Below, in pieces: positions 25,811 to 64,000 of a stretch of 64,000 bases of DNA. The notes under the pieces were generated by a model. It ran no database searches. It worked only from the letters and a program-made list of their open reading frames with translations, and was not told the origin of the DNA. The translations under genes were made by a program, and so were the position numbers. Position 1 is the first letter of the stretch; each line of letters begins with the position of its first letter. Origin of the DNA: Thermoplasmata archaeon (lineage in GTDB: Archaea; Thermoplasmatota; Thermoplasmata; Thermoplasmatales; ARK-15); assembly GCA_038729465.1 (NCBI GenBank), contig JAVYRZ010000004.1, positions 19,860 through 83,859 of the forward strand, given 5' to 3'.

Positions 25811-25821
25811 TTTTCATCCTT

Positions 25822-37039: not shown

Positions 37040-37132
37040 GAACAAACTATTTTAATTTTTTATATTTCTATTTATAAAATACAGAAAGGTTAATTATATA
37101 AAAATAATTAATTAAGATCAGGTGAAATTATA

Positions 37133-37911: not shown

Positions 37912-37914
37912 TGC

Positions 37915-38847: not shown

Positions 38848-39033
38848 TACGATTAAAAGCTTATTCAGGATAATCCCACCTCTCTTAAATTTAAAAAAGA
38901 TGGATGATGATCAGTGTAAAATTTTAGTAACCTATGACTTCTTTTAATCATTAGAAAGATATCAAATTTTCAATATATACTCTTTATGGTACAATTTTTA
39001 ACAACTCTCCGATTTCAAAATTTGCAAATGGAA

Positions 39034-39375: not shown

Positions 39376-40038
39376 CTTTACTCACGACCATATCTTTCTA
39401 TTTTATTTAAAATACAATTTACTATTTTATATTATCTCTTTTCATTTCAAATTTTGATATCTAAAATGATTTTCTATAGATAGATCATTATTTAGATCTA
39501 GCAATGTTCCCATAAATTAACGGTCAAATTTAATTCACGTAAGATCGTCTGTATCATTAAGCACAGATTTCAGAGCGTTATCACTACAGAGATTGAAAAG
39601 GTAAAATAAGATTTTTGAATATACTCTATGAAAAATACAAGAAACGTGGAAAAATAGTAGTAAAGTAACCATGTAGAAAGATAAAACATCAGAAGATCAA
39701 AAAAAGACCGTCCTTATTATAAGATTTAAATATCCAACTGCGGACCTCTGGCAATAGAGCATTATTTAAAAGAGAGATCAATAAAAATGTCACATAATGA
39801 TATCTCCAAGATCTTAAAGAAACTTACTTCCCCCGAAATTTAAGCATAAGAAAGAGATAACTTCTAAATGATGTTAACATAGTTAACGAAAAACTTAACT
39901 TAATCATTAATGACAAAATAAGTGATTCAATATCTGCAGGGGGATAGATCAATAAAACAAAGATAAATATTGTTGCAAATCAACAGTGTCCAGGAATTTC
40001 ACGCAAAAATTATAATATACTATTAAATTCACATATCT

Positions 40039-50043: not shown

Positions 50044-50573
50044 GCTATTAGTTTCCTACTTTCTTTATTGTATATAGATTCACAGATCCATTTTAAAGTA
50101 TTTAAAATATTATCCCCGTTTTTAGCACTAACTATTGCATAAGTAGCTTTAAATTTATTTGCTAGCGCTTTCAAATCTTCTTCCCAGAATAGAGAATGGT
50201 ATTTAGAGTCAGATTTGTTTCCTAAAAATACAATATTTATGTTTCCTACCGTTTTTATAATTTTATCTGCAATCTCTTCTGCTGCATGAAGTGATTCTAT
50301 ACTCGTAACATCAGTTACTATCATTCCAACTTTTGTGTTTTTTAATTTCTGTAAATAGAGATTATCAGAATCCTGCTCTGAAATTAATAATGTCAAAAAT
50401 ATTTTCCCGTCAACAGTTTCACAATCCATCTTTTTTTGAAAGAATTCTCCCTTATCTAGTTTTTTCGGAACATCAGCAAATATATCATATACTATCCTGT
50501 TAATTATCGAAGTTTTACCAGCCCCTTTAGGGCCTAAAAACATTATTTTCCAAGTAATGATATTATCCGCCAT
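50040..50573 (-). CDS. Ras-superfamily-like small GTPase with divergent switch II
   Basis: G1 GPKGAGKTS, G4 GNKSD and G5 SAK are present. The canonical G3 DxxGQ is replaced by LLISEQDS. It overlaps endA by 4 nt. Confidence 0.6.
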   Translation of the reverse strand: MADNIITWKIMFLGPKGAGKTSIINRIVYDIFADVPKKLDKGEFFQKKMDCETVDGKIFLTLLISEQDSDNLYLQKLKNTKVGMIVTDVTSIESLHAAEEIADKIIKTVGNINIVFLGNKSDSKYHSLFWEEDLKALANKFKATYAIVSAKNGDNILNTLKWICESIYNKESRKLIA

Positions 50574-50765
50574 CAGGTCATTAATTGTTATTTTATATTT
50601 AATACTTTTCTAATATTGCACTCTATTCAATGAATAAAATTATTACCTAGGTTGGTTTTTTAAAGATTATGTTTTTTATTTTATTTTGCTTGCTTGAAAT
50701 CAGAGTTTCACTCTAATAAAATATATATTACAACATTTAAAAAGTTAGTATAGCAAAAATCAAAA

Positions 50766-51131
50766 CTATGCTGATTTTGACCGCGCAATTTTTTCTATTA
50801 TTTGTTTTAGAGCATTTGCATTGTTATAAGTTAATTCTTTAGATCCAAATAAGAAAATGATATCCTCTTTTTTTGATAGAATCTTGTTTAAAAATTCTGA
50901 AAATGCTGGATTGTGTAAAAGCTCAATCTCATATTTACTCAAAAATTCAGCCCATTTTCCAGGATCATGGTTAAACCATTTTCTCAGAGAATCAGATGGC
51001 GCAAATCCTCTAGCCCAAAGATCTAATTTAACATTCTCTTTTTTGACTCCTCTTGGCCATAGCCTGTCTACCAGGATCCTATATCCGTCTCTCTGGCAAC
51101 TATAAACTCTACAAACTATTATTTCCGACAT
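50766..51131 (-). CDS. DUF488-family protein
   Basis: ILVDRLWPRGVKKE...LWARGFAPSDSLRKWFNHDPGKWAEF matches the DUF488 pattern. Length is 121 aa. Confidence 0.75.
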   Translation of the reverse strand: MSEIIVCRVYSCQRDGYRILVDRLWPRGVKKENVKLDLWARGFAPSDSLRKWFNHDPGKWAEFLSKYEIELLHNPAFSEFLNKILSKKEDIIFLFGSKELTYNNANALKQIIEKIARSKSA

Positions 51132-51175
51132 GTTCCACCCATTTTTATTTATTCTTTATATTGAGATTTTTTATG

Positions 51176-51847
51176 TTATTTATCTCCTTTGCTATCTCTT
51201 ATCTCCTTTAATGCCTCTTTATCCCTAGAGTATAAGTAAGGTGCAAGATCCAGTGATTCGGGACTATTTTTTAATTTTCTTTTATACACATCTCTTAAGT
51301 GCCGGTCAATTTCTCTGCAATAATCATCCCATTTCACGCCAAGTGATTCAACATACTCCTTCTCAATTTTAGTCGCAATCTCATGAGCATATGGATATTC
51401 ATAAGCGTCATCAGATAACCATTTTTCAGGAATCTCATGATGTCTGTCTATCGATATGCGCGTGTCTACTTTCTTACCATCCACCTCAATGATCTTAGGA
51501 AAATGCTCGTCCAGAAAAACTGTTTTACCATCTATAGAATAGCCGCCAGTATATTTTATATCGTGCTCAGTATCAACTTTAATCTGGTCTCCAGTTTTAA
51601 AATCGATGACTGTCCCTATTTCTTCTCCATTTAAAAATACATGCTCTTTCTCATCTATCTGTATGATAGTACCTCTTTTAATATCTACTCTGGATATTAT
51701 TTTAGCATAAGATGGTGTTTTATAATTTATTGCTACAATCGTGTATCTTTCAGTATAACTATCCTTCTTTTTGCCGTGCTCTATAACCTCATAGTCGTCC
51801 ATAAAAAACAATACTGATTGATCATATATAAACATTATGTAGATCAT
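51176..51847 (-). CDS. hypothetical protein
   Basis: 223-aa ORF. The first roughly 15 codons look like translated promoter, so the start is probably at MDDYEV (about 51802). It is acidic and Lys-rich, and no family was recognised. Confidence 0.4.
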   Translation of the reverse strand: MIYIMFIYDQSVLFFMDDYEVIEHGKKKDSYTERYTIVAINYKTPSYAKIISRVDIKRGTIIQIDEKEHVFLNGEEIGTVIDFKTGDQIKVDTEHDIKYTGGYSIDGKTVFLDEHFPKIIEVDGKKVDTRISIDRHHEIPEKWLSDDAYEYPYAHEIATKIEKEYVESLGVKWDDYCREIDRHLRDVYKRKLKNSPESLDLAPYLYSRDKEALKEIRDSKGDK

Positions 51848-52143
51848 AAATCTATAAAGACCAATCGAATGAAATAATGTTATTAATACAAAATTTCATT
51901 ATTATTGCGACCTTAATATCTTTTTCTACTTTTTATATTAACTTAAAGTGGACAGCATAAAAATAAAAGATGAAAAACACATTAATGAAATGTATGATAT
52001 ATATGATTTAAATATTTTCAAAAATAAAATTTTTATGATGAATATATTAAATTAAAAATTTATTATTTAATAAAAAATCTAAAAACGATTATTTTTTTAC
52101 TATTTTAAAAAATTATAAATAGATAATTGCAATTATCTTATTT

Positions 52144-52998
52144 ATGTACAGCATAGGGTTGATCTATTTTTTATTGATACTAATCACTTCTGTTTGTGCA
52201 GGGATGTTAGGTGCTATGGCAGGTTTAGGGGGTGGAATATTAATTGTACCATTTTTAACGGCACTTCTAAATGTTAATGTTGATTATGCCATAGGAGCGT
52301 CTATCATTGCGGTGATAGCTACTTCTAGCGGTTCTGCATACGCCTATGTCAAAGAAAAAGTATCAAATATAAGAATAGGCACCTTTTTAGTTCTTTTTAC
52401 TGTCCCTGGGGCTATTATCGGCGCAGTAATCGAAGGATTTACTCAGCCAAAATATTTATTTTTGGTGTTTGGCTTAGTTATGTTTATTTCCATATTTGCA
52501 ATGTATAAAAAGATTAAAGAGAAAGAGAATTTGGATCCAGTAGTAGTTGATGATAAACTTGCAGATAAGTTAAAACTTCATTCTAAATATTATGATGCCA
52601 GGTTAAAAAGAGAGATTAAATATAAAGTTCAACGTGTAAAAGAGGGATCCTTGGTAATGTTTTTTGCCGGTATCGCTTCAGGACTTCTGGGTATAGGATC
52701 TGGAGCATTTAATGTCCTTGGCCTAGATATGATCATGAAATTGCCTATCAAGGTATCCACCACGACCTCTAATTTTATGATAGGGATAACTGCTGCGGCT
52801 AGTGCAGGCATATATTTCTTGAGAGGAGATGTAGATCCATTTATTGCCGCACCTGTGGCCATAGGAGTTCTTATAGGAGCAGTGGGTGGTGCCAGGATTT
52901 TGTTGAAAATAAATAGTAATACTGTAAGAGTGATATTTTTGGCGATTTTGTTTGCGATGGGTGTAGACATGATAATAAAAGGTATAGGAGGTATATGA
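52144..52998 (+). CDS. TauE/SafE-family anion (sulfite/organosulfonate) transporter
   Basis: 284 aa with about 8 TM segments. The duplicated GxGGG-rich helices (GAMAGLGGGILIVPFL and GLLGIGSGAF) are typical of the DUF81/TauE family. Confidence 0.8.
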   Translation: MYSIGLIYFLLILITSVCAGMLGAMAGLGGGILIVPFLTALLNVNVDYAIGASIIAVIATSSGSAYAYVKEKVSNIRIGTFLVLFTVPGAIIGAVIEGFTQPKYLFLVFGLVMFISIFAMYKKIKEKENLDPVVVDDKLADKLKLHSKYYDARLKREIKYKVQRVKEGSLVMFFAGIASGLLGIGSGAFNVLGLDMIMKLPIKVSTTTSNFMIGITAAASAGIYFLRGDVDPFIAAPVAIGVLIGAVGGARILLKINSNTVRVIFLAILFAMGVDMIIKGIGGI

Positions 52999-53414
52999 AA
53001 ATGAACGTGAATATAAAAGAAGAGGAAAGAATTGAGGCAAAAGTTTTGAGCTCTTTTTTGAAATGGAGCGTTATAGTGTCTGCGATGGTAATCACTGCTG
53101 GAATAGTAATACTAATAACACTTTGCAGTACTGGATATGGTTCCTCAAATATCTGCCTATTACTGGGGCAGATAAAAGGTACAAATGTTTTTCCTGTATC
53201 TGTTCTGAGTGTTTTTTCAGGAATATTACAGGAAAAATCCTTCGCAATAATACAGCTAGGTATTTTGTTTTTAATAGCAAGTCCTTTTATCAGAGTGTTA
53301 CTTCAGACTGGAATCTACGTAAAAGAAAAGGATAAACTATTCACATTGATATCCACAGTAGTATTTATATTCCTCATAGTTTCTATTATATTACCTACAT
53401 TGATTAAAATGTAA
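52995..53414 (+). CDS. DUF1634-like small membrane protein
   Basis: 139 aa with 4 TM segments. It overlaps the TauE gene by 4 nt. This size and pairing are typical of DUF1634 partners of TauE genes. Confidence 0.5.
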   Translation: MKMNVNIKEEERIEAKVLSSFLKWSVIVSAMVITAGIVILITLCSTGYGSSNICLLLGQIKGTNVFPVSVLSVFSGILQEKSFAIIQLGILFLIASPFIRVLLQTGIYVKEKDKLFTLISTVVFIFLIVSIILPTLIKM

Positions 53415-53506
53415 GTCCAACAAAAATGCCAAGGAATTTAATTTCAGATACGAATATTTTTAGAGCTTATCTCAAATTATTTTAAATATAAATAAGTAAA
53501 AAATTT

Positions 53507-55747
53507 TTATAGCCCTTTATATGGGTTTGGTCCGATCGATTTTATATACTCTACAAAATTATTTATGATCTTGTCTACCTTATTCCAGTCTGATATTTCC
53601 ACCTGCTCTAGTTTTAGTCTTTCTGACTCTAATGCAAGTCTCTGAAACGTTTCTTGCATGTTTTCAATTCTCTTGCTTGCCAGTTCAGATCCTCTAATAA
53701 AGTGGCACTGATAATCTTCTCCAAACTTGCAACCCATTAAAAGTATTCCATCGATTCCCTTGGAAAGTGCGTCAGCTATGAAAATGGTATTTACTGACCC
53801 CAGACATCTAACCGGTATTATTCTCACAAATTCACTGTAACTTATGCGGTTCTTAGACGCCATGTCCAGTGCGGGGTAAGCATCATTCTCGCAGGCAAAT
53901 ACCAATATTCTAGGTTTATCCTCCTCTTCGGGAACTACTATAGATTTTATAGTACTTGAAACCACATCCACTGAATACTGTTTAAAAGAGATTGCCTGTG
54001 CAGGGCAGGCGCCTAGACAGGCGCCGCAAGCCCTACACCGGAGTGGATTATAGAGTGGGTAGGTTTTGTCATCTTCATTCAGAGCTCCAAATGGACACTC
54101 TTCAGTACATCTCCTGCACTGTGTGCATCTTTGCATAGAAATTGTAAGGTGATCTAGATCTCCTACTCTAGTTTGGCCTGTTATCTCACCTCTAGATATT
54201 TCCTCTACTGCCTGAATAGCCTTTAAAGCCGCGCCTTTTGCATCAAGTTCGCAGTTAAGGACTGTCATAGGAGATCGAACAGTACCGGCAGCATATATGC
54301 CGGTTCTTCTACTTTCATATGGAAAGCATATATAATGAGAGTCTGGAAAACCGTCTCTCAATGTTGGCAATTCAGGGCCCTGTCTATACTGTAGATTAAG
54401 TATATGCTTACCGCTCTTAAGAGCTTCTACAGACTCAACTGGCACTGATTGAATATGCGAATAAATTGGAGCACCGGCATCAGGATACTCTTCCTTTACA
54501 GTGTAAAGACCATATAACGAGGATAGCATGCCTGTAGCCAGCGTTATAATGTCTACTTTTACACGTATATCTTTGCCCAAAAGCGTATCTTTTACGTATA
54601 TTGAAAATTCTGAATTGCTGTTTTCACGGCCTATTTCTTCGACAGTACCCTTGGTTAAATAGATTCCTTCATCTTCCTGCACTTTTTTATAAAATTCCTC
54701 ATATATCCCGAGAGTTCTAATATCCTTATAGAAAATGTACACCTTTGAATCTTTTATACTCTTTCTTATTTCCAGTGCCTCTTTTAATGAGCTTAAACAG
54801 CATACAGTAGAGCAGTAAGGTATATTCTCTTTTTCCCTCTGCCCTGCACACAATATAAATGCAAAGTTTTTAGGATCTTTATTACTGGCTGTTTTGATGT
54901 TATTATCTTTCAACATTTTTTCAAGCTCTAGATTTGTTATGATATCTGGTTGCTTTCCATATTGATATTTATCAATCTTGCTGGCATCGTAAGGTTTCCA
55001 TCCGGTAGCTAAAACTATTGCACCGGCTCTGATATTTTCCACTACTCCATTATTCTTAAATGTTACATCAAACATTCCAGGCTGACCAGATATTGAGTCT
55101 ATTTCGCTTGAAGTATATACTTTTATTCTGTGATCATTTTCTAATTTACCTATTTTCTCGCCTATATATTTTGCAGCATCTACAGGCTCCTTATATGGAA
55201 ATTTACCAGGCAGGATCTCTTTGTATTCCCTGATTTTCCCACCTAGCTTTATATCTTTTTCAATCAAGTAAACTTTATAGTTTGCTTTAGCAATTTCCAA
55301 TGCTGCAGTAATGCCCGTGATTCCTCCACCAACCACCAGTATCTCCCGTGAAATATTTTCTATATCAGGCACCGGTAAATCTTTTTTTATGGCTGACACT
55401 ATGCCCATTCTCAGATAATCCTCCGCCATCATCTGTGTATTCTCATTTTTTTCATGAGACCATACCACTCCCTCTCTTAAATTTACACGCTCAGTAATTA
55501 CATCCTTGCCAAAATTAAAAATATCCTGCTTTTCACGCATAGAGCATGCTGCAATAACAACAGTATTAATTCCATTATCTATATCATCTCTGATATGCTT
55601 GGAATCAGAACAGAGAGTATCATATACTTTTACTGGAACTTTATACTCTTTTTCAGCGATATTTTTAAGTGCCTCAATATCCAGGTTCTTGCCTATATCA
55701 CAGCCACTGCAAATATATACACTAACTTTTTTAGCCACTTCACTCAC
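53507..55747 (-). CDS. qmoB: quinone-interacting membrane-bound oxidoreductase subunit B (HdrA-like flavoprotein with MvhD-like domain)
   Basis: 746 aa with an N-terminal YICSGCDIG and the FAD fold VVGGGITGITAALE. Two ferredoxin motifs are present (CTQCRRCTEECP and CRACGACLGACP). The C-terminal MvhD-like region reads ILVFACENDAYPALD. It overlaps qmoA by 8 nt. Confidence 0.85.
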   Translation of the reverse strand: MSEVAKKVSVYICSGCDIGKNLDIEALKNIAEKEYKVPVKVYDTLCSDSKHIRDDIDNGINTVVIAACSMREKQDIFNFGKDVITERVNLREGVVWSHEKNENTQMMAEDYLRMGIVSAIKKDLPVPDIENISREILVVGGGITGITAALEIAKANYKVYLIEKDIKLGGKIREYKEILPGKFPYKEPVDAAKYIGEKIGKLENDHRIKVYTSSEIDSISGQPGMFDVTFKNNGVVENIRAGAIVLATGWKPYDASKIDKYQYGKQPDIITNLELEKMLKDNNIKTASNKDPKNFAFILCAGQREKENIPYCSTVCCLSSLKEALEIRKSIKDSKVYIFYKDIRTLGIYEEFYKKVQEDEGIYLTKGTVEEIGRENSNSEFSIYVKDTLLGKDIRVKVDIITLATGMLSSLYGLYTVKEEYPDAGAPIYSHIQSVPVESVEALKSGKHILNLQYRQGPELPTLRDGFPDSHYICFPYESRRTGIYAAGTVRSPMTVLNCELDAKGAALKAIQAVEEISRGEITGQTRVGDLDHLTISMQRCTQCRRCTEECPFGALNEDDKTYPLYNPLRCRACGACLGACPAQAISFKQYSVDVVSSTIKSIVVPEEEDKPRILVFACENDAYPALDMASKNRISYSEFVRIIPVRCLGSVNTIFIADALSKGIDGILLMGCKFGEDYQCHFIRGSELASKRIENMQETFQRLALESERLKLEQVEISDWNKVDKIINNFVEYIKSIGPNPYKGL

Positions 55748-56978
55748 CCTTTCTTAAGTGTTGCATAGCTCCAAGCACTGCCGCCGTTGCATCCTGGTTA
55801 CTGGATGATACGTCTGCAGGTTTTTTAGCTACACCAGCTACATTAAAAATATCGTCTTCTATGACAAACCCAAAATTATCATATTTTAAGCCATCAATTT
55901 TGTTGGATACTGTACTGGGTTGCATACCAGTTGCTAAAATAACCAAATCAAATTCCTTTTTTATTTTAATCCCGCTAGCTGTATCTTCAACCTGGACAAT
56001 TAGGTTCTTGCTAGGCGTTTCTTCAATCTTGGCAACCTTTCCCTTCGTAAATGTGACGTTCTTGTCAGTTTGCAATTTCTCTAAGAAATGTTCATACAAA
56101 CCATACGCCCTGAGATCAATATAGAATATTGTTATGTTCGCATCAGCATATTGTTCCCTTATGTAGAAAGCATGCTTCATTGATGCTAGACAACATATCT
56201 GCGAACAGTATGGCAAGTAATTTTCATCTCTAGAGCCTGCACATTGAACTATTGCAATATTTTTTGGTTCTTTGTTATCAGATATCCTGATAATCTTTCC
56301 TTTTGTAGGACCATTAGGTGATGCAATTCTTTCAAACATGATATTTGTAATAACATTTTGATATTCCCCAAATCCGAGATGTGCCAGTTTTTTTGCGTCA
56401 TAAGGATCCCATCCAGTAGATACAATAACAGATTTTGCATCAATTTGTATTTTTTCCTCCTTCATGGCTAGATCTATGGCATTGTATTGGCATGCACTTA
56501 CGCATTTAGCACATTCCTTTCCAAGGCAATATTTGGGATCTATAACATATAGATCTGGAAAAGCTAGATCATGAGGAATATATATCGCTTTTGTGGTGTC
56601 CATTCCAAAATTAAAATCATTTTTTCTAGATACGGGACAGACCTCAACACATTTGCCACATGAAGTACATAAATCATTAACGAAACGCGGCAATATAGAT
56701 ATATCTACTGTATAATTATCATTAACGTTTACTACTTTTTTTACATTGGCATTCGTAATGTATTTAAGATTGTTCAGGTTTTTAAGCCTTTTAATAAGTA
56801 TTTCAAAACCACAATAAGGTGGACATAATTTTGGGAAATATTTGTTGAGTTGCACTACTCTTCCACCTAAATATGGATTCTTTTCAAGTAATATCACGTT
56901 ATACCCTGTTTCCGCAGCCTCTACTGCCGAGGTTATGCCGGAAATTCCACCACCGATTACTACAATATCTGTATTCAA
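55740..56978 (-). CDS. qmoA: quinone-interacting membrane-bound oxidoreductase subunit A (HdrA-like flavoprotein)
   Basis: 412 aa with the FAD fold VVIGGGISGITSAVEAAE, then LGGRVVQLNKYFPKLCPPYCG and the Cys motif CTSCGKCVEVCP. It lies directly downstream of aprA. Confidence 0.85.
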   Translation of the reverse strand: MNTDIVVIGGGISGITSAVEAAETGYNVILLEKNPYLGGRVVQLNKYFPKLCPPYCGFEILIKRLKNLNNLKYITNANVKKVVNVNDNYTVDISILPRFVNDLCTSCGKCVEVCPVSRKNDFNFGMDTTKAIYIPHDLAFPDLYVIDPKYCLGKECAKCVSACQYNAIDLAMKEEKIQIDAKSVIVSTGWDPYDAKKLAHLGFGEYQNVITNIMFERIASPNGPTKGKIIRISDNKEPKNIAIVQCAGSRDENYLPYCSQICCLASMKHAFYIREQYADANITIFYIDLRAYGLYEHFLEKLQTDKNVTFTKGKVAKIEETPSKNLIVQVEDTASGIKIKKEFDLVILATGMQPSTVSNKIDGLKYDNFGFVIEDDIFNVAGVAKKPADVSSSNQDATAAVLGAMQHLRKGE

Positions 56979-57008
56979 GCTTTAACATCCCCTAAAATAA
57001 AAAAAAGA

Positions 57009-58952
57009 TTAGAGAGTGTAATCTGCCACCTGTACATACGGCACTTTCTGTAGCTCCCAGTTTCCACTGACAGGGTCTTTTCTTCCAACACTGAAGCATT
57101 TCCAGTTTTTGTCGTCTAGATCTGGATAGTCAGTTCGGTAGTAATATCCAGGCCATCTGGTCTCTTTCCTGAACTTTAGATGCTGTACATGTGCCTCTGC
57201 AACAGTAACTCTGTGCCACATTTCCCAAGTTCTTAAAAGTTCATGCAAATTTCTAGCTGCTAGCTTGTTCATATCCTCTTTTAGAACTTGAATCTTGCTC
57301 AAAGCTATGTTTAAATAGGTTTCATTGATCCTGAACCATGTAGACGTTCCGCCTGCATATTCATCCATGATCTTCTGTAACCTCCACAGTGCCTGTTTTG
57401 GGAATAGGAAATTTGGGTTTATTTCTTCTGCAGTAGTAGCATTCTTGAACTGTTCATACGTAACCATAGGCTGGAATATCTTCTTCTTGAGCTCTGTGAC
57501 GCTATTTTCATCGATACTTACACCATCTCCCTGTTCAACAACATATCTTACAGCTTCCTTACCTGCAATTCTTCCTTCCGTAAAAGAACCGCTTGAGAAT
57601 TTGTGTGGAGAAGCACCTGCGTTATCACCTATGGCAAATAATCCCTTTATCGTGGTCATTCTATTGTACTGCAAGGGAAACAATGTTTTGTATTCATCAG
57701 GCATCAGATCCTGAGGACCGCAGACCCATAATCCTGCACAGCCCGAATGTGAACCCATCAAATAAGGCTCTGCTGCAGCGATTTCAGATGGCGTTTTGTC
57801 AGGCTCAGTATTCGTTGAAGCCCAAAGCATTGCCTGATCTACTGTCATATCCAAGAAATCTTCCCACGCCTCATCAAGCAATTTCTTAGTCTTTTTAGCG
57901 TCTCCTGTAGCTAACTTCTCGATTGCCCACTCTGTTCTCATCCATATTGGGCCTCTTCCATTTACCATCTCTTCAATCATCTGATGGTTTCTAAGTGGTG
58001 TTGGCGTTGGTGTTGCATCAGCGTATGGCTTATATTTTGCCATAGCTTCAACATTTTCAGTGTAATCTTTATCATATGTATTTGTTGCCTTGCTCTTGAA
58101 CAGCAAGAACCATGCACCCACAGGACCATAACCATCCTTAAACCTTGTGGGTATAAATCTGTGCTCCATCTGTGTGGTATGTGCCCCTGCATTTATAGCC
58201 ATTGCATATCCGCTTCCGGTGTTAAACACTGCATACCATATCCTTCCCATACCCTCAGCAGTGCTTTTAGGCCTGAATAACGAAGTGGCACCTCCAGTTG
58301 CTAATATAACTGTTTTAGCTTTAAATATGTAGAATATAGGATCTCTCACACTGAATCCAATAGCACCAGCTACTTTTTGTGGATCGTTTTTGTCCATTAT
58401 CAGATGACTCAAAAATACCCTTTCATATATGTTCTGATCACCAAGCGCTTTTTTTGCAGCCTCTGCAACTATTGGCTTGTATGACTCTCCATTGATCATT
58501 ATCTGCCATCTGCCCTCTCTTATATATTTTCCATTCTCATCTTTCCAGATTGGCAATCCCCATTTTTCAAAAAGATGTACGCTGTCATCAACATTTCTTG
58601 CGTAATCTGCTACTAGATCCTCTCTGGAGACCCCCATCATATCAAGATTAACGTATCTTACGAATTCTTCAAGCGTTATCGGTTTGTTATTTGTAAACTG
58701 TGACCTATCTGACAGACCTAAATAACAGTTTATGGCTGATAACCCATGAGCTACTGCCCCACTTCTTTCAATTGCAGCTTTTTCTACCAGTGTAACTTTT
58801 TTGCCCGCGGCCTTGGCCCAGTATGCTGCCTCATAAGCTGCTCCGCATCCGGACATACCACCGCCTATAATCAAAACATCAGTTTCAACTACTTCAGTTT
58901 TTATATCTTCTGGCTTGTAATTTTCTACTTTTCTATAAATTTCTACTGCCAT
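57009..58952 (-). CDS. aprA: adenylylsulfate (APS) reductase alpha subunit
   Basis: 647-aa flavoprotein of the fumarate-reductase family (LIIGGGMSGCGAAYEA). It sits 12 nt downstream of aprB, and its size and context are diagnostic. Confidence 0.92.
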   Translation of the reverse strand: MAVEIYRKVENYKPEDIKTEVVETDVLIIGGGMSGCGAAYEAAYWAKAAGKKVTLVEKAAIERSGAVAHGLSAINCYLGLSDRSQFTNNKPITLEEFVRYVNLDMMGVSREDLVADYARNVDDSVHLFEKWGLPIWKDENGKYIREGRWQIMINGESYKPIVAEAAKKALGDQNIYERVFLSHLIMDKNDPQKVAGAIGFSVRDPIFYIFKAKTVILATGGATSLFRPKSTAEGMGRIWYAVFNTGSGYAMAINAGAHTTQMEHRFIPTRFKDGYGPVGAWFLLFKSKATNTYDKDYTENVEAMAKYKPYADATPTPTPLRNHQMIEEMVNGRGPIWMRTEWAIEKLATGDAKKTKKLLDEAWEDFLDMTVDQAMLWASTNTEPDKTPSEIAAAEPYLMGSHSGCAGLWVCGPQDLMPDEYKTLFPLQYNRMTTIKGLFAIGDNAGASPHKFSSGSFTEGRIAGKEAVRYVVEQGDGVSIDENSVTELKKKIFQPMVTYEQFKNATTAEEINPNFLFPKQALWRLQKIMDEYAGGTSTWFRINETYLNIALSKIQVLKEDMNKLAARNLHELLRTWEMWHRVTVAEAHVQHLKFRKETRWPGYYYRTDYPDLDDKNWKCFSVGRKDPVSGNWELQKVPYVQVADYTL

Positions 58953-58964
58953 ATTTAATTCCTC

Positions 58965-59426
58965 CTATTTCATCTTCTTCTTTAATGTATATCTTGCTGG
59001 GTCTTTGCAATCTCTTCCACCTGCATAATCGAGCGACTTTAATTTTTCCAGAGTTGGTTCTTCAAAGCCTTCAAAAGGATTTATAGAGTCCCAAGCATTG
59101 GTCCTTATCGGGAATTTAAATCTGAAAATTTTTCCGTTTCTAAACTTTACCAGCCACAAAATAGAGTCAGTTCCTCTCTTAGGTGTCACGGAAGATCCTA
59201 GTGGCACAAAGTCAGAATATCCTCTTACTTCAATGGCATCCTGCGGGCAGGTTTTTACGCAGGAATAGCATTCCCAACACATATCAGGTTCCTGATTATA
59301 TGCTTTCATCTTCGCTTTGTCCAAGATCATTAAATCATTCGGACAGATGTACTGACAAGCAGTCCTTGCTAGCGCCTTACAGCCATCACATTTATCTGGG
59401 TTTACATAAGTTGGCATATTATTCAC
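58965..59426 (-). CDS. aprB: adenylylsulfate (APS) reductase beta subunit
   Basis: MPTYVNPDKCDGCKA...CQYICPNDLM...CWECYSCVKTCPQDAI gives the two [4Fe-4S] motifs. The extended C-terminal tail is typical of AprB. The start is probably at MPTYV (59417). Confidence 0.92.
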   Translation of the reverse strand: MNNMPTYVNPDKCDGCKALARTACQYICPNDLMILDKAKMKAYNQEPDMCWECYSCVKTCPQDAIEVRGYSDFVPLGSSVTPKRGTDSILWLVKFRNGKIFRFKFPIRTNAWDSINPFEGFEEPTLEKLKSLDYAGGRDCKDPARYTLKKKMK

Positions 59427-59498
59427 CTCTTTTACTAAATACCTATATGTTTTCGTTATATTAAAATTTTTTTACGATTTTTGATATATAATAATAGA

Positions 59499-59572
59499 AT
59501 ATGTAAAAATATAAATTAATAAAACATATTTTTGCTATTAAATTAAAATTTTTTAAAATTTATGTAAAAATA
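59499..59572. repeat. two copies of the 12-mer TATGTAAAAATA (59499-59510 and 59561-59572) in the aprB upstream region
   Basis: Read directly from the sequence. On the coding (minus) strand it reads TATTTTTACATA, starting about 73 and 135 nt upstream of the aprB ORF. These may be TATA/BRE-like or regulator sites. Confidence 0.35.
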
Positions 59573-59593
59573 AAAAATAAAAGATATTTGATT

Positions 59594-59938
59594 TTATTCT
59601 TTCATTTCATTCTCTTTTATTACTTCACACATGGGTGTGCCCTGGCACAGAAATTCTTCAACCACTTCTGGTCCCGTGGATCTTTTTCTTACGCATATAT
59701 TGAATAGCTGGTCTTTAGCTTCTTTTGGCAACAATTCTATAGTTTTAGTGGTGGCACTATCAAACTTGGCATTAGGATACATTTTTAATAACCTGTCTTT
59801 CTGGGCCAATGTACACTTTATCAACAGTGATCTCATCCCTGCAAGTACATCCTTGGTTAAATCTGCCAATCCCGCAGCCTTTAACTTTTCAAATCTCTCT
59901 TCATTAATCCATATTGGTATTCCGTTGATTTCATCCAT
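59594..59938 (-). CDS. hypothetical protein between sat and aprB (C-terminal CQGTPMC motif)
   Basis: 114-aa ORF 14 nt downstream of the sat stop, so probably co-transcribed with sat. No family recognised. It has three Cys, two of them in C-x5-C near the C-terminus. Confidence 0.55.
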   Translation of the reverse strand: MDEINGIPIWINEERFEKLKAAGLADLTKDVLAGMRSLLIKCTLAQKDRLLKMYPNAKFDSATTKTIELLPKEAKDQLFNICVRKRSTGPEVVEEFLCQGTPMCEVIKENEMKE

Positions 59939-59952
59939 TTTATAACACCTCT

Positions 59953-61251
59953 TTAAGCCTTTCCAACTTTTATATGATCAAGAGTAAATATCGATTTGCG
60001 GTTGGCCAGATAATTATCGTTTACAAAAGGCGAACCGTATCCATATTTTTCTGAGCATTCCATAACTTTGTCAAATACTTCTGGCCTGAATACAAGTTTA
60101 GTGGGTTTTACTCCATCCATCAAAATACTTCTAATCATAGTGCCGCTGAAAGCTTGGCTCTGCTCTTTATGCGCACAAAGTGCTGAAGAAGTTACTTCTG
60201 AACACACTGGGCAATACCAGTTCTCCATCAAAAATAGTACCTTAATTCCTAATTTATCCTTGTATTTTTTAAGCAAATAATGTGCATCATAAGGGCCATA
60301 ATAATTTCCAACTCCTGCATGGTCTCTGCCGAACATATGGTGAGTACAACCAATATTGGTTCTTAATGCTGAATGGAATAGCGCTTCTCTGGGTCCAGCA
60401 TATCTCATATCCCACAGTGCAAATGTAACTGCATGAGTGTCTTCTCTAAAATATCCGGCAGTCCTCAGTATCTCATGTGTCAACAAAATAGCTTCATCAA
60501 TATAATCTCCTTTTCGCTTCTCTCCTATAATGCAGTTTACAAGCACGCCAGTCTTTATTGTATCTACAGTTAGATCTTCATTTGCTGCAAACCATGCAAG
60601 CTTCATTAGCCATTCATGTCCTGTATGTGGTACATTTCTCGTCTGATGCGCTACTATATGTTCCCAACCTTTCTGCTTAAACAGCTCTCGATGTTGTAAT
60701 GGCGTTTTCCAGAACGATGCATATGGTTCATTAAATTTGGGTTCGTTTACAAGAGTCACTTTACCGCCAATAAAATTATCTTTGTAATCCAAAGTTCTTT
60801 TCACGCCTGGATGTTTTATATCACTTGTTCCATAAACATTTTTAGCAAGATCTTTTTTATCATATTTATATATCTCATCTATATCAAAAATTGCCAGTGG
60901 TTCATTTTGATATGACAATACTACTGATTCTCCATCTTTTATATCGTATTTTTTTAGCTCTTCATCGGATAAGTCAAAGACAATAGGTATGCTCCACACC
61001 GCACCGTTAGTCAAAGTGTTTTCTTTGCTTACGCCATCTAGATCCTCATTGCCCATGAAACCCTGTAAAGGTGTGAAAAACCCATAAGAGAGGTTTATGC
61101 ATTCATGTGCAATCTGTTCTCTGATTGGTATTTTCCTTAATCCTTGAACTTTATTTTCAGCCTTGTCTGATTTTAAGACATTTTCGACTATTCTTTTACC
61201 GCCATGACCGATATCATTCATATATATTCCTCCTACTTTACATAGATTCAA
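59953..61251 (-). CDS. sat: sulfate adenylyltransferase (ATP sulfurylase), homo-oligomeric type without APS-kinase domain
   Basis: It has HQTRNVPHTGHEWLMK (the QxRN/HxxH nucleotidyltransferase motif) and FGRDHAGVG. The start is probably at MNDIGHGGKRIV (61221). Confidence 0.9.
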   Translation of the reverse strand: MNLCKVGGIYMNDIGHGGKRIVENVLKSDKAENKVQGLRKIPIREQIAHECINLSYGFFTPLQGFMGNEDLDGVSKENTLTNGAVWSIPIVFDLSDEELKKYDIKDGESVVLSYQNEPLAIFDIDEIYKYDKKDLAKNVYGTSDIKHPGVKRTLDYKDNFIGGKVTLVNEPKFNEPYASFWKTPLQHRELFKQKGWEHIVAHQTRNVPHTGHEWLMKLAWFAANEDLTVDTIKTGVLVNCIIGEKRKGDYIDEAILLTHEILRTAGYFREDTHAVTFALWDMRYAGPREALFHSALRTNIGCTHHMFGRDHAGVGNYYGPYDAHYLLKKYKDKLGIKVLFLMENWYCPVCSEVTSSALCAHKEQSQAFSGTMIRSILMDGVKPTKLVFRPEVFDKVMECSEKYGYGSPFVNDNYLANRKSIFTLDHIKVGKA

Positions 61252-61305
61252 AATATATATATAAATTTATCGAATTTCGGTAATTTATTTTTATAAAGAG
61301 TTAAA

Positions 61306-61335
61306 TTAGATAAATTATTGATTAAATTTATCTAA
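61306..61335. repeat. 11-bp perfect inverted repeat (TTAGATAAATT / AATTTATCTAA, 8-nt spacer) in the qmoC-sat spacer
   Basis: Read directly from the sequence. It lies 35-64 nt downstream of the qmoC stop and upstream of sat, so it could be a terminator hairpin or an operator. Its AT-rich composition lowers significance. Confidence 0.35.
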
Positions 61336-61369
61336 ATTAGTTTTTTTATCTTGTAAATAGTTTAAAAAA

Positions 61370-62470
61370 TTATATAGCAGGAACTCTGCCGATTGATCTA
61401 GTGTATATCATTGCTATACTCCTATAAATCAAATGTGCAAATTTTGAATATGGTGCGTAGACTATAAGCATGAAAATCAGTGTTAGATGAACAAGGTAAG
61501 TCCAGTAAGCAAAGACACTTCCATCAAGTCTGAGTATTTCCATTGTTACGCCGGTGATCGCGGTAAAAAATAATAGAAATATAAAGAGCCAGTCAAAATA
61601 GGTGTTTTCCTTGGGGACCTTGTTTGAAACATGATTGTATATTACTATTATTATACCGGTTAAAATTACCACTGCACCTATATTCCCTATAATGTTTGCA
61701 GGACCACCTATCAGTGAGTGCTGAACTCCTAGAAAATGTATCTCAAATGCAGCCGTTGCAGTAGCTACCAGTAAAAATATAAAGCCATAAAATGTAAATA
61801 AATGAGCATAATACCTTACATGATTAGTTTCACATTTTTTAAACCAAGAATGAGCAATGATATCTTTAAGTACCAAGATTAGAGAACTGAAAAAGCTCAT
61901 CTTGTTTTTTTGCTCGGCAGTCAAGCTTCTCCAGAATCTCCATAAACTGAACAAAGCAATTAATGCTACGATCACTCCAATTGTTGTACCTATTACATCT
62001 ATGTATATATATGGTATAAAGTTGGAGAAATAAATAGCTCCATCTGCCGGCATCTTCAATCCCAATCCATAGATTAATAGAGCTATAAAGAGAACTGGAA
62101 ATAGTATAAAGAAAGGCAGATATTTTTTTTCACTAATCCCCTTTGCAACGAATCTCGGCCAGGAGTTCTCTTCTATTGCTATCTCTCGGACTGCATTCAA
62201 AACACTTCCAGGTTTAGCATTTCTTGGACAATCTTTAGAGCAATCAGCACAATTATGGCATAGCCAGATATCCGGATCTTTGAGAAGAGTATCTTTAAGC
62301 CCCCACTGTGCCCATATCATCTCTTTCCTTGGAAATGGATTATTATCAGGGCTCAAAGGACATACCACGGAGCATTCTGCGCATTGCATACATTTTTTTA
62401 CATCTTTGCCGCCATGCTTAATTATTTCATCGATAAATTTTGTATCTACATCAATATATTCTGAGTTCAT
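61370..62470 (-). CDS. qmoC: quinone-interacting membrane-bound oxidoreductase subunit C (HdrC-like Fe-S domain fused to a HdrE/NarI-like haem b membrane domain)
   Basis: The N-terminal CMQCAECSVVCP and CHNCADCSKDCP motifs are followed by about 6 TM helices with conserved His. Context with sat/aprBA/qmoAB supports the call. Confidence 0.8.
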   Translation of the reverse strand: MNSEYIDVDTKFIDEIIKHGGKDVKKCMQCAECSVVCPLSPDNNPFPRKEMIWAQWGLKDTLLKDPDIWLCHNCADCSKDCPRNAKPGSVLNAVREIAIEENSWPRFVAKGISEKKYLPFFILFPVLFIALLIYGLGLKMPADGAIYFSNFIPYIYIDVIGTTIGVIVALIALFSLWRFWRSLTAEQKNKMSFFSSLILVLKDIIAHSWFKKCETNHVRYYAHLFTFYGFIFLLVATATAAFEIHFLGVQHSLIGGPANIIGNIGAVVILTGIIIVIYNHVSNKVPKENTYFDWLFIFLLFFTAITGVTMEILRLDGSVFAYWTYLVHLTLIFMLIVYAPYSKFAHLIYRSIAMIYTRSIGRVPAI

Positions 62471-62610
62471 ATACTCACCATATATTTTTCGTCATTTAAT
62501 AGTTTTTTTTCATTTTTGATTTTGGTTATAGTTAATTTTTTATGATAAATGTAAATGCAAATAACTATAAATATCTTATTATGTCTTTTATATAATAAAA
62601 ATTATCGATA

Positions 62611-63369
62611 TTAGGTTTTAACATTCCATAAAAGCTCAAAATGATTTTTATTAGCCATTATTGATTCTTTTGCAAGTATGTTGATTCCAAATAGCTCTCC
62701 GTCCGGTTGTGTAAATGTTAGCAATAAATTTTTTTCATCAATTATCAGCATATATTCATAAAATGAATCTACAATCTTGTATTCGATTCCGGTATTATTC
62801 ATAAAATCTATACAATTTTTAGAAAAATTACCAAGAACTCTAATCTTTATATCTTTATTTTCTGCAATCTTGCCTAGAGTTTTGATGCAATTTAGTGCTG
62901 CTAATGGCCTGTGACCTGCAATAAGGCATTCTCTTTCAGTGGATGCAATCATAGACGTAGCCTTGTTGTAAACATTATTCTTTCCTTTTATTGTCCATAT
63001 TAATGAAATTTCATTTTTTATCTCTTTTTCGTCGATACTTTTCTCTATTTCCCTAGCAATCTTTTTTAAATGTTTTAGCTTAGTTTTAGCCTCTTCACAA
63101 TAATGATCTATATAGTTTTTTAGGGCGATGCTAGGATAAATTACTCTAAATATCTGGGGTTTGGTAGCACTTTTTTCAATAAATCCTTTTTTCTCTAAAT
63201 TTGACATAATTTCGTAGATTTTGGATTGAGGTATATTTCCAGACTTAGAAATGCTCCAAGCTGTACCTTCTTTAATCGTAAGTATAGTCTGATACGCTTT
63301 TGCTTCATACTCTGTCATACCAAACTCTTTCAAATTTTTTAACAATTCCATATGGTTCATTAGTATCAA
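62611..63369 (-). CDS. TrmB-family transcriptional regulator
   Basis: The N-terminal wHTH reads LKEFGMTEYEAKAYQTILTIKEGTAWSISKSGNIPQSKIYEIMSNLEKKGFIE. A TrmB-like C-terminal domain follows. It is divergent from dsrC. Confidence 0.75.
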   Translation of the reverse strand: MILMNHMELLKNLKEFGMTEYEAKAYQTILTIKEGTAWSISKSGNIPQSKIYEIMSNLEKKGFIEKSATKPQIFRVIYPSIALKNYIDHYCEEAKTKLKHLKKIAREIEKSIDEKEIKNEISLIWTIKGKNNVYNKATSMIASTERECLIAGHRPLAALNCIKTLGKIAENKDIKIRVLGNFSKNCIDFMNNTGIEYKIVDSFYEYMLIIDEKNLLLTFTQPDGELFGINILAKESIMANKNHFELLWNVKT

Positions 63370-63533
63370 AATAACTTAAATAGGGATTACATATATATCT
63401 TTTTTTTAAAATAAGAAAATATAATTTATTTATGTATCTAAAAATTTAATTTTTAAACTAAATAAGATATATTTTAAAATAAAATAACAAAAATTGTCAT
63501 AAAAAAACAAAATGTTTTTATTACTGTTTTATA

Positions 63534-63552
63534 TTACTACTATTAGTAGTAA
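63534..63552. promoter_or_regulatory. perfect 9+9 inverted repeat TTACTACTA-t-TAGTAGTAA (core TACT-N3-AGTA), candidate operator upstream of dsrC
   Basis: Read directly from the sequence. It ends 4 nt before the GAGGTGA Shine-Dalgarno (63557-63563) and 15 nt before the dsrC ATG. TATTACT half-sites are also at 63519-63525 and 63532-63538. Confidence 0.45.
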
Positions 63553-63567
63553 AAATGAGGTGAGAGA

Positions 63568-63906
63568 ATGGCTGAAAATTATGTAATTGTGAAAAATCCG
63601 GATGGATCCGAGAAAAAAATAGCCATTGATGAAGATGGTTTTATAAAGGATCCTGCTGATTGGTGTGAAGCTTTTGCTTTAGCAGTAGCTAAAGAAGAAG
63701 GAATCGAAAAGGTGACCGATGAACATTTAAAAGTGATAAACTATCTAAGGAGCTATTTTTTACAGTTTGATAGTTGCCCACCTATAAAGATGCTTTTAAA
63801 GAACACTGGTTTAGATATTAAAACTTTGTATATTTTATTTCCTACCGGCCCAGCAAAAGGTGCCTGCAGGTTAGCTGGTGCTCCTAAACCTACGGGGTGC
63901 GTATAA
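63568..63906 (+). CDS. dsrC: DsrC (TusE/DsrC family) with both redox-active C-terminal cysteines
   Basis: 112 aa. DEDGFIKDPADW, LTDEHLKVINYLRSYF and the C-terminal arm PTGPAKGACRLAGAPKPTGCV are present. The penultimate Cys and a second Cys 11 positions upstream give C-x10-C. A strong SD lies upstream. Confidence 0.9.
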   Translation: MAENYVIVKNPDGSEKKIAIDEDGFIKDPADWCEAFALAVAKEEGIEKVTDEHLKVINYLRSYFLQFDSCPPIKMLLKNTGLDIKTLYILFPTGPAKGACRLAGAPKPTGCV

Positions 63907-63908
63907 AT

Positions 63909-64000
63909 ATGATATATGTAGCATGTCCAGTCTGTGGATTTACAATAGATTCATTTTCTGAAGAAGATCTGAAAAGTCCAGTCCGAGAAAAGAGACTTAG
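63909..64000 (+). CDS. hypothetical protein, 5' part only (runs off window); possible zinc-ribbon
   Basis: The ATG lies 2 nt after the dsrC stop. It translates as MIYVACPVCGFTIDSFSEEDLKSPVREKRL with a CPxC knuckle. The sequence is too short to classify. Confidence 0.3.
   Translation, partial: MIYVACPVCGFTIDSFSEEDLKSPVREKRL

Follow-up and report, generated by a model that had tools for sequence, protein, structure and literature searches.

Cultured archaea that reduce sulfate are, to our knowledge, limited to Archaeoglobus and a few Thermoproteales. The gene cluster examined here, which encodes ATP sulfurylase (Sat), adenosine 5'-phosphosulfate (APS) reductase (AprBA), the QmoABC complex and DsrC, comes from a Thermoplasmata archaeon of the lineage ARK-15. 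It occupies one end of a stretch of 64,000 nucleotides (nt), hereafter the window, taken from contig JAVYRZ010000004.1 (positions 19,860 to 83,859) of assembly GCA_038729465.1. In Archaeoglobus fulgidus the route from Sat to AprBA (AF1667-1670) follows the same logic, with QmoABC as the electron donor; the accompanying sulfite reduction genes encode bacterial-type DsrAB, DsrD and DsrMKJOP (Neukirchen 2023). Vulcanisaeta and other Thermoproteales combine archaeal-type DsrAB with a later acquired Sat-AprBA-Qmo module, which reached them by a separate interdomain transfer from bacteria, and archaeal sulfate reduction has been modelled on this basis as at least two interdomain acquisitions, one in Archaeoglobus and one in Vulcanisaeta (Neukirchen 2023). 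The YNP-TEG 'Diaforarchaea', thermoacidophilic relatives of the Thermoplasmata, possess archaeal-type DsrABC and DsrMK but neither Sat nor true AprAB (Colman 2020, PMC7174415) and are treated as sulfite reducers (Neukirchen 2023).

The ARK-15 locus resembles each of these systems in part. Its qmo genes lie within the apr cluster, whereas those of A. fulgidus are found at a separate locus (AF0661-0663); in contrast to A. fulgidus it has DsrAB proteins that fit the archaeal type, DsrMK only and no DsrD in the cluster, and its host belongs to a different phylum. With Vulcanisaeta it shares the pairing of archaeal-type DsrAB with an acquired Sat-AprBA-Qmo module, although the AprBA-Qmo part in ARK-15 is related to that of the Archaeoglobaceae. 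With the Diaforarchaea it shares the DsrABC and DsrMK core but, unlike them, it carries an intact Sat-AprBA-QmoABC set. The region is probably one half of a full dissimilatory sulfate-reduction supercluster, the half that activates sulfate and reduces APS, on the chromosome of an uncultured, thermoacidophilic ARK-15 archaeon. Because the dsr operon continues past the end of the window, the pathway from sulfate to sulfide would be contained in one supercluster of ~19 kb. The features of the region are as follows, with protein lengths in amino acids (aa), open reading frames abbreviated as ORF and flavin adenine dinucleotide as FAD.

52144-52998, plus strand: tauE, TauE/SafE (TSUP-family) permease, 284 aa (Pfam TauE, 171.6 bits)
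52995-53414, plus strand: DUF1634 small membrane protein, 139 aa (Pfam DUF1634, 69 bits)
53507-55747, minus strand: qmoB, HdrA-like flavoprotein, 746 aa (Pfam FlpD, Fer4, Pyr_redox_2)
55740-56978, minus strand: qmoA, HdrA-like FAD flavoprotein with one ferredoxin motif, 412 aa (HdrA-family, FAD and Fer4 matches)
57009-58952, minus strand: aprA, APS reductase alpha (FAD) subunit, 647 aa (TIGR02061)
58965-59426, minus strand: aprB, APS reductase beta (2x[4Fe-4S]) subunit, 153 aa ORF (TIGR02060, APS-reductase_C)
59594-59938, minus strand: DUF6955 protein, 114 aa (Pfam DUF6955)
59953-61251, minus strand: sat, homo-oligomeric-type ATP sulfurylase, 432 aa ORF (NF003166, PUA_2, ATP-sulfurylase)
61370-62470, minus strand: qmoC, membrane subunit with HdrC-like and NarI-like domains, 366 aa (NF038018)
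62611-63369, minus strand: TrmB-family winged-helix regulator, first gene of the minus-strand string (Pfam TrmB)
63370-63567, no strand: AT-rich divergent intergenic region between trmB and dsrC, with a 17-nt palindrome (sequence)
63568-63906, plus strand: dsrC, 112 aa, first gene of the dsr operon (PF04358, TIGR03342)
63909-64000, plus strand: start of orf99, the first 30 codons of a 99-aa zinc-ribbon protein (translation matches L084:10342-10641)

Gene identities were taken from the ORF listing of the window together with profile searches against Pfam and NCBIfam models with curated cut-offs. On this basis the minus-strand string at 53507-63369 reads trmB-qmoC-sat-DUF6955-aprB-aprA-qmoA-qmoB, with every gene intact. 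A preliminary description of this stretch had listed seven co-oriented genes here; all seven stand where they had been placed, and an eighth, trmB (62611-63369), heads the string. The motifs quoted there for Sat, AprB, QmoB, QmoC and DsrC are likewise all present in the translations. Public gene calls use later starts for four of the proteins (Sat 422 aa, AprB 150 aa, QmoB 743 aa from position 55738, TrmB 249 aa). The true start of aprB is probably the methionine of MPTYVNP at 59417, giving 150 aa, and that of sat is probably at 61221, giving 422 aa. The gene set is real and complete, and it is very probably functional.

The APS reductase is the most strongly matched of these enzymes. AprA matches the AprA equivalog model TIGR02061 over its full length with 993.1 bits (cut-off 641.75), and aligns end to end with A. 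fulgidus AprA (2FJA/1JNR) with 978 bits and 66% identity. The residues N74, Y95, E141, W234, R265, V273, G274, L278, R317 and H398, which we take from the 1JNR literature to form the FAD and substrate site, are all ten identical in a global alignment to 2FJA_A. AprB scores 218 bits against TIGR02060 (cut-off 135.65), 95 bits against PF12139 (APS-reductase_C) and 230 bits against 1JNR_B, to which both [4Fe-4S] cysteine motifs, MPTYVNPDKCDGC and CWECYSCVKTCP, and the CWEC tryptophan are aligned. AprBA is thus predicted to be a dissimilatory APS reductase.

Sat exceeds the cut-offs of both NF003166 (497.5 bits, cut-off 387) and TIGR00339 (376.7 bits, cut-off 322.95), and is composed of a PUA-like N-terminal domain (PF14306, PUA_2) and the catalytic ATP-sulfurylase domain (PF01747). 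The motifs HQTRNVPHTGH and GRDHAGVG are found in its translation, and the corresponding segments AHQTRNVPHTGHEW and FGRDHAGVGNYYGPY, which carry QTRNxxHxGH (HxxH) and GRDHAG, align with structure 8A8D. The possibility raised in the preliminary description that AprA or Sat might be decayed paralogues is thus countered by the alignments to 2FJA_A and 8A8D, in which the catalytic residues of both are kept.

The ORF that follows 14 nt downstream of sat belongs to Pfam family DUF6955 (103 bits, cut-off 27). A database search returned 273 clusters of this family, all labelled hypothetical, and an open-access full-text search found no paper that mentions it. Sixteen columns are invariant across 46 sequences. 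An AlphaFold2 model (mean predicted local distance difference test 85.5) contains two beta-alpha units, a short beta-hairpin and two C-terminal helices, and a Foldseek search with it returned no match in the PDB (best E 1.7). In Bacillota, Desulfarculaceae and Thermoplasmatota loci alike (the window, L006, L019-L025, L058, L068, L069 and L072) DUF6955 always directly follows one type of Sat, and this order is kept on a Mycobacterium contig that holds both genes (P0116, P0212). Because of this strict placement after sat, even in organisms that do not reduce sulfate, DUF6955 is suggested to be a Sat-linked accessory protein. Entries labelled 'Candidatus Micrarchaeaceae/Micrarchaeia archaeon' at NCBI contain DUF6955 and Sat proteins 88% and 94% identical to those of the window (P0002, P0131). 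Micrarchaeota are known episymbionts of Thermoplasmatales, and these entries probably reflect a binning error in which a Thermoplasmata contig was put into a Micrarchaeota metagenome-assembled genome (MAG).

The electron-transfer complex is complete, although its genes are not contiguous. QmoA and QmoB match HdrA-family models with 365 and 416 bits, in a profile library that holds no curated QmoA or QmoB model, and are orthologous to the apr-linked QmoA and QmoB of about 60 loci. QmoB is 62-65% identical to its apr-adjacent counterparts in Archaeoglobaceae MAGs; it carries CxxCxxCxxxC ferredoxin motifs at residues 541 and 571 and a C-terminal FlpD/MvhD domain (149.5 bits, residues 614-739), so that profiles and motif scan agree with the flavoprotein folds, paired ferredoxin motifs and MvhD-like tail described earlier. 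QmoC scores 390.4 bits against NF038018 (cut-off 300). Its two CxxCxxCxxxC motifs (residues 27 and 71) and six hydrophobic, presumably transmembrane, segments agree with the earlier count of two Fe-S motifs and about six helices. All eight cluster cysteines are kept in 49 of 49 homologues, and the best conserved histidines in the same set are H207 (84%) and H223, H328 and H346 (100% each). QmoC is thus predicted to combine an HdrC-like 2x[4Fe-4S] domain with a NarI-like di-haem b domain. The order qmoA-qmoB-qmoC is broken here, with qmoC upstream of sat and parted from qmoAB by sat-DUF6955-aprBA. Contiguity of qmoABC is usual for this complex, not defining. Among 83 loci, the placement of qmoC before sat is found only in ARK-15 (the window and L001-L004), locus L067 representing a different variant.

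Divergent from this string, on the plus strand at 63568-63906, lies dsrC, as had been described. DsrC scores 110 bits against PF04358 and 109 bits against TIGR03342 (cut-off 53.5), and 77 bits against the TusE model, below its cut-off of 191. Its tail, ...GACRLAGAPKPTGCV, reads C-RLAGAPKPTG-C-V in translation and thus places two C-terminal redox cysteines 10 residues apart, the C-x10-C arrangement. Of the next gene, orf99, the window contains the first 30 codons (63909-63998), and public contigs continue the operon as orf99-dsrA-dsrB-dsrM-dsrK-sqr (L084:10342-16246), with proteins of 99 aa (orf99), 397 (DsrA), 356 (DsrB), 252 (DsrM) and 470 aa (DsrK). Four independent assemblies of one population (L001, L084-L086) show dsrC-orf99-dsrA-dsrB-dsrM-dsrK without interruption. 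DsrB passes its curated model (TIGR02066, 359.9 bits, cut-off 341.5). DsrK (298.7 bits, cut-off 400) and DsrM (75 bits, cut-off 300) fall below theirs; for these two, and for DsrA, the Dsr models are still the best matches. DsrA scores 211 bits against A. fulgidus DsrA (3MM5_A), about 140 bits against Desulfovibrio DsrA, and shares 29-31% identity with the bacterial DsrA proteins of the loci retrieved. These levels of similarity fit the archaeal type, the clade assignment itself being that of a published study which places ARK-15 DsrAB in the reductive archaeal type, RA-DsrAB clades 1 and 5 (mLife 2026).

The protein encoded by orf99 is a zinc-ribbon protein with two CxxC motifs, and a sub-threshold match to Fin is its sole Pfam or NCBIfam signal. 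Only seven homologous clusters were found, all of close relatives, and the sole one with an organism label is from a Thermoplasmata MAG. A role as an analogue of DsrD was considered for it and is unsupported, there being no match to DsrD (PF08679) and no family assignment.

We infer from the sequences which reactions the enzymes catalyse, which way the pathway runs and what TauE-DUF1634, DUF6955, TrmB and the palindrome contribute; the scheme suggested by homology is as follows. Sulfate would enter the cell, possibly via the adjacent TauE-DUF1634 permease, and would be converted with ATP to APS by Sat, with DUF6955 as a Sat-associated accessory. AprBA would then reduce APS to sulfite, releasing AMP, with electrons that leave the membrane quinol pool via QmoC (di-haem b, 2x[4Fe-4S]) and reach AprBA by way of the QmoA and QmoB flavoproteins. 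The archaeal-type DsrAB would reduce sulfite onto the two C-terminal cysteines of DsrC, and DsrMK would regenerate DsrC with release of sulfide.

Several points weigh against this scheme. DsrA scores 300.9 bits, below the curated DsrA cut-off of 392.85, a shortfall that is expected for the archaeal type and is no proof of function. Genes for pyrophosphatase, DsrN, DsrD and DsrJOP are absent from the cluster, and none for DsrD or DsrJOP was found within 10 kb of it. A gene for a type III sulfide:quinone oxidoreductase (SQR)-like flavoprotein begins 13 nt after dsrK, and an SQR is unexpected in a sulfite-reduction operon; the protein could serve in the re-oxidation of product sulfide or in detoxification. 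Elsewhere on the contig, profile matches at 9053-10907 and 15293-16435 identify genes for a Rieske protein, a SoxC-like cytochrome b and a CbsA-like cytochrome b558/566 (EB_dh haem domain). All are quinol-oxidising components of respiration of the Sulfolobus type, and they hint that the organism lives facultatively and is not a strict anaerobe. Because of the SQR-like, Rieske, cytochrome b and CbsA-like genes, a facultative or partly oxidative sulfur metabolism is possible. Enrichments of the related Diaforarchaea reduced sulfite, not sulfate (Colman 2020, PMC7174415). The trees reported below were built by neighbour joining with 100 bootstraps from AprA-linked loci only, with Thermoproteota references absent.

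The alternative to which the SQR-like gene and the respiratory genes lend weight is that the module operates backwards or bidirectionally (sulfite to APS to sulfate, with a yield of ATP), or serves disproportionation, in a facultatively (micro)aerobic acidophile. Sat-AprBA-Qmo is known to be reversed in some sulfur oxidisers (Neukirchen 2023), genes to oxidise sulfite and genes to reduce sulfate were both ubiquitous in the springs studied by Qi (2024, PMC11094006), and in the related Thermoplasmatales locus L008 the interval from dsrC to aprB includes a DsrE-like gene. However, no gene for DsrEFH or DsrL was found in or near the ARK-15 cluster (about 20 kb examined), ARK-15 DsrAB has been assigned to the archaeal reductive type (mLife 2026), and archaeal Dsr pathways are so far solely reductive (Diao 2023). 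In the AprA tree the Thermoplasmata sequences group with those of sulfate reducers, well apart from the Gammaproteobacteria/Chromatiales clade, and the abundance of dissimilatory sulfate reduction genes rose with sulfate and acidification in pool DRTY-6 (Qi 2024, PMC11094006). The comparison of dsrAB and dsrMK with oxidative markers that the preliminary description proposed thus gives, within the roughly 20 kb examined at the cluster, a reductive result of the minimal archaeal kind, and an oxidative or bidirectional role is unlikely.

An assimilatory function, comparable to the Sat/APS-kinase/3'-phosphoadenosine 5'-phosphosulfate (PAPS) reductase route of Methanothermococcus thermolithotrophicus, is highly improbable and was rejected. 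The best solved-structure match of Sat is the assimilatory enzyme of that organism (8A8D), its AprA-like PAPS reductase (8A8O) scores 344 bits to the AprA of the window, and the Sat-DUF6955 pair also occurs in Mycobacterium, which is no sulfate respirer. The score of 344 bits contrasts with the 993 and 978 bits obtained with the dissimilatory model and with A. fulgidus AprA, there is no APS kinase in the cluster, and QmoABC, DsrC, DsrAB and DsrMK have no assimilatory role.

The least credible alternative is that the cluster was mis-assembled or mis-binned from an Archaeoglobi member or a bacterial sulfate reducer of the same metagenome, an idea favoured by the striking similarity of AprA to Archaeoglobaceae AprA (76-78%) and by the binning errors that the Micrarchaeia-labelled homologues show for such contigs, but effectively refuted, for practical purposes, by contiguity and composition. 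The cluster is contiguous with genes for archaeal LeuRS, EndA, a Ras-like GTPase and DUF488 in both the window and L001; L002 and L003 are short contigs that bear the cluster alone. A 91%-identical cluster is present in a Thermoplasmata MAG from Kamchatka (L004), and six further Thermoplasmatota species representatives carry monophyletic versions of it. The GC content at third codon positions (GC3) of the cluster genes (0.27-0.38) is indistinguishable from that of the 49 other window genes (0.327 +/- 0.063), and their codon-usage distances lie inside the background range, the short dsrC excepted. Recent transfer or contamination is ruled out by this agreement, and because codon usage matches that of the host, any transfer is likely to be old. 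Contiguity and composition together indicate a cluster long resident in its genome, not a mis-binned fragment or recent island.

The identity of the host is consistent with this conclusion. The exact AprA sequence is present in three NCBI assemblies, and positions 47009-64000 of the window are 99.92% identical to contig JAVZWD010000011.1. The latter belongs to MAG DRTY-9_201803_bins_12 (GCA_038878155.1) from an acidic Tengchong hot-spring pool (Qi 2024 supplement, PMC11094006), which is 97% complete, with 1.30 Mb and 35.2% GC (Qi 2024, PMC11094006), and which GTDB v207 assigns to Thermoplasmatota; Thermoplasmata; order and family ARK-15. The GC content, called very low in the preliminary description, is about 35% in window and MAG alike. 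The expectation voiced there that the host would be neither an archaeoglobal nor a thermoproteal sulfate reducer has held, the marker placement of this MAG lying outside the known sulfate-reducing archaea. The housekeeping genes on which that expectation drew, including class II HMG-CoA reductase (TIGR00532, 507 bits), two-domain EndA, XerA and archaeal LeuRS, were all identified; PCNA, Elp3, diphthine-ammonia ligase, HerA and TatC are also encoded in the window, which apart from the cluster is the ordinary chromosome of an archaeon.

The phylogenetic relationships of the cluster proteins suggest a composite history. When GTDB species representatives were scanned for AprA, no Thermoproteota sequence was among the 80 closest loci. 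Window AprA is 97% identical to that of the Kamchatka MAG, 82-84% identical to those of five more Thermoplasmatota MAGs, 76-79% identical to those of Archaeoglobaceae MAGs and of the unclassified archaeal MAGs grouped with these, and 58% or less identical to those of bacteria and one Archaeoglobus MAG. Trees of AprA, AprB, QmoA, QmoB and QmoC each recover a Thermoplasmata clade (bootstrap 95-100%) that is sister to the Archaeoglobaceae-MAG clade (78-100%, with 100% for QmoA), and A. fulgidus AprA is the next to join this pair (100%). On the same Archaeoglobaceae contigs, PCNA is 34% and AprA 77% identical to the proteins of the window. Because of the trees and this contrast, AprBA-QmoABC appears to have moved as a block between Archaeoglobi-like and Thermoplasmata lineages, and a donor on the Archaeoglobi side is the simpler reading since A. 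fulgidus branches outside the pair formed by Thermoplasmata and Archaeoglobaceae MAGs. As an observation apart, locus L018 (Archaeoglobus sp. JdFR-22) encodes an AprB 76% and an AprA 58% identical to those of the window, with its AprA outside the archaeal clade, which suggests a chimeric aprBA or different histories of the two subunits.

Sat tells a different story. Its tree groups the Thermoplasmata with Bacillota and Desulfarculaceae (91%), and a clade of Thermoplasmata and Archaeoglobaceae Sat receives 0%. The identity of Sat is about 41% to Archaeoglobaceae MAGs and 60-62% to Desulfofundulus/Bacillota and Desulfarculaceae; in a database-wide search Thermoplasmata relatives (63-73%) are followed by a bacterial tier at about 60-62% that comprises Mycobacterium, Desulfofundulus, Thermodesulforhabdus and Dehalococcoidales. 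The cluster thus reads as a three-way mosaic of an archaeal-type Dsr core, an Archaeoglobi-related AprBA-Qmo block and a mainly bacterial-type Sat-DUF6955 pair. In the history envisaged here, DsrAB, DsrC and DsrMK would be of old archaeal type, AprBA-QmoABC would derive from the Archaeoglobaceae or from a donor in common with them, Sat-DUF6955 would be mainly of bacterial type, and the acquisitions would be ancient enough for full amelioration. The preliminary description had offered a distinct lineage and a laterally acquired module as alternatives. The second is borne out by the placement of AprBA-QmoABC beside the Archaeoglobaceae and of Sat-DUF6955 beside the bacterial type, and the two do not exclude each other, since a distinct archaeal lineage and acquired parts are found together.

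Among relatives of the host, the loci of the Thermoplasmatales family GCA-001856825 (L005, L007-L009) and of Thermoplasmatota FK_Sedi (L006) likewise have dsrK-M-B-A-orf99-dsrC divergent from aprBA-qmo, with identities to the window of 81-84% for AprA, 52-63% for Qmo and 47-70% for Dsr proteins; in the trees they are monophyletic together with the window sequences. Unlike in ARK-15, their qmoABC genes are contiguous. L005 and L007-L009 have no sat gene nearby, and in L006 sat-DUF6955-tauE-DUF1634 is divergent from aprBA-qmoABC. Between dsrC and aprB, L008 has the DsrE-like gene and an HTH_10 (Bat-type) regulator (L008:8211-9226), whereas ARK-15 has trmB-qmoC-sat-DUF6955 at this place. A housekeeping baseline came only from PCNA against the Archaeoglobaceae, since no homologue of the 49 other window proteins is present in the flanks of the Thermoplasmatales loci. 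Among bacteria, Desulfofundulus/Bacillota and Desulfarculaceae (L019-L025, L058, L068, L072) share the identical order sat-DUF6955-aprB-aprA-qmoA-qmoB, with identities to the window of 48-56% for DUF6955, 54-56% for AprA and 46-54% for QmoA and QmoB. The Bacillota loci show weak (24-26%) QmoC-like matches about 4 kb downstream, and the DsrAB proteins that go with the bacterial sat-DUF6955 loci are presumably of bacterial type.

The cluster is abutted, convergently with qmoB, by the tauE-DUF1634 pair (52144-53414, plus strand). TauE has seven hydrophobic segments, and the tauE stop is overlapped by the DUF1634 gene by 4 nt. In L006 sat, DUF6955, tauE and DUF1634 form one co-directional string (L006:5659-8716), the DUF1634 match there reaching 50 bits, so that two Thermoplasmatota lineages show the pair tied to the cluster. 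In two Archaeoglobaceae loci, L013 and L018, tauE comes after qmoC. TSUP proteins are proposed, unproven sulfate transporters of sulfate reducers (Marietou 2018). Because of this recurrent linkage to sat, apr and qmo, TauE-DUF1634 is a candidate dedicated sulfate/sulfite transporter, in which TauE would be a sulfate importer or sulfite exporter and DUF1634 its presumed partner subunit.

The TrmB-family protein (Pfam TrmB 68 bits, residues 13-79; 87 bits with the TrmBL1 model, below its cut-off) is encoded between the two divergent gene strings and is probably a regulator of the divergent apr and dsr promoters, controlling both strings. It is 93% conserved in the Kamchatka relative, and its gene is absent at the equivalent place in the Thermoplasmatales loci. 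Gaps of 140-176 nt precede qmoC, sat and aprB, each with a Shine-Dalgarno-like GGTGA or GGAGG near the start codon. Because of these gaps and sites, the minus-strand string is suggested to comprise several transcription units (trmB / qmoC / sat-DUF6955 / aprBA-qmoAB).

Upstream of dsrC, a 17-nt palindrome, TACTACTATTAGTAGTA, lies at 63535-63551 and ends 17 nt before the ATG. Its arms are perfect (TACTACTA-T-TAGTAGTA), and it is unique in the window, where 0.19 matches are expected by chance and where no shuffle reached the observed count. The palindrome is identical in the Kamchatka relative and was not found in the Thermoplasmatales loci, which share another conserved upstream block, TTTACCTAATCTGTAAGGTGTCCAATT. 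As a speculation, it may be an operator for the adjacent TrmB-like regulator. A search for a common operator by shared k-mers of five upstream regions returned only trivial AT-rich 8-9-mers, and a search for short inverted repeats only weak AT palindromes. A sigma-70 promoter and terminator scan of 51800-64000 gave 53 promoter-like sites against 52.6 expected and was set aside as uninformative for an archaeon. Rfam and tRNA scans found no RNA element within or near the cluster, the only tRNAs of the window being at 20.6 and 22.7 kb.

Other parts of the window hold features of separate interest. A Ras-family small GTPase gene (50040-50573; PF00071, 58.6 bits) overlaps the start of endA by 4 nt, and the two are apparently co-transcribed. 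About 1.1 kb without a long ORF (34583-35672), beside xerA and msrB, contains short transposase-like frames (e.g. MDECHFNQHGSRYR...) and is probably a decayed insertion sequence; GC falls to 0.29 in 36000-40000. A further minus-strand string (24589-28503) encodes AMMECR1, two radical-SAM proteins, a SIS-domain protein and a weak TIM-barrel ORF, and may represent an AmmeMemoRadiSam-like system.

The lineage itself is less novel than had been supposed. The preliminary description spoke of an unrecognised lineage, but the same assemblies have been published with sulfate reduction attributed to ARK-15: dissimilatory sulfate reduction in acidic springs was reported to be mediated by ARK-15 and Thermoplasmatales, with dsrA transcripts from an ARK-15 MAG in Tengchong springs, and with the most abundant ARK-15 representative lacking aprAB (Qi 2024, PMC11094006). 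Thermoplasmatota are also listed among the archaea that encode the Dsr pathway (Diao 2023). ARK-15 sulfate reducers are thus recognised, from metagenomes only. A search of open-access full text found no paper on an Archaeoglobi-like origin of AprBA-Qmo, a bacterial-type Sat-DUF6955 or a displaced qmoC in Thermoplasmata. What is new is mainly the patchwork origin of the genes, together with the Sat-linked DUF6955 and the linkage of TauE-DUF1634, and the advance is incremental because the claim for the lineage is published (Qi 2024, PMC11094006) and the enzymes are canonical.

Tentatively, and with rather less confidence than the sulfate-reducing function itself deserves, ARK-15 and related Thermoplasmata may have come to sulfate respiration by a route of their own, the third independent one among archaea. 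On this view an ancestral, sulfite-reducing Diaforarchaeal DsrABC-MK core was extended in two steps, with Archaeoglobaceae-related AprBA-QmoABC gained by transfer within the archaea and a mainly bacterial-type Sat-DUF6955 pair captured separately, and with DUF6955 as a general Sat accessory and TauE-DUF1634 as a dedicated sulfate/sulfite permease. Such a route departs from the published scheme of at least two interdomain transfers, to Archaeoglobus and Vulcanisaeta, in which the Diaforarchaea reduce sulfite only. The mosaic offers a test case for whether sulfite reduction preceded sulfate reduction and for the way in which archaea came to share the sulfate-activating module. Should the pathway be active, Thermoplasmata that are abundant but uncultured would be genuine sulfate respirers under hot, low-pH conditions, which would matter for the cycling of sulfur and the formation of sulfide in acidic geothermal systems.

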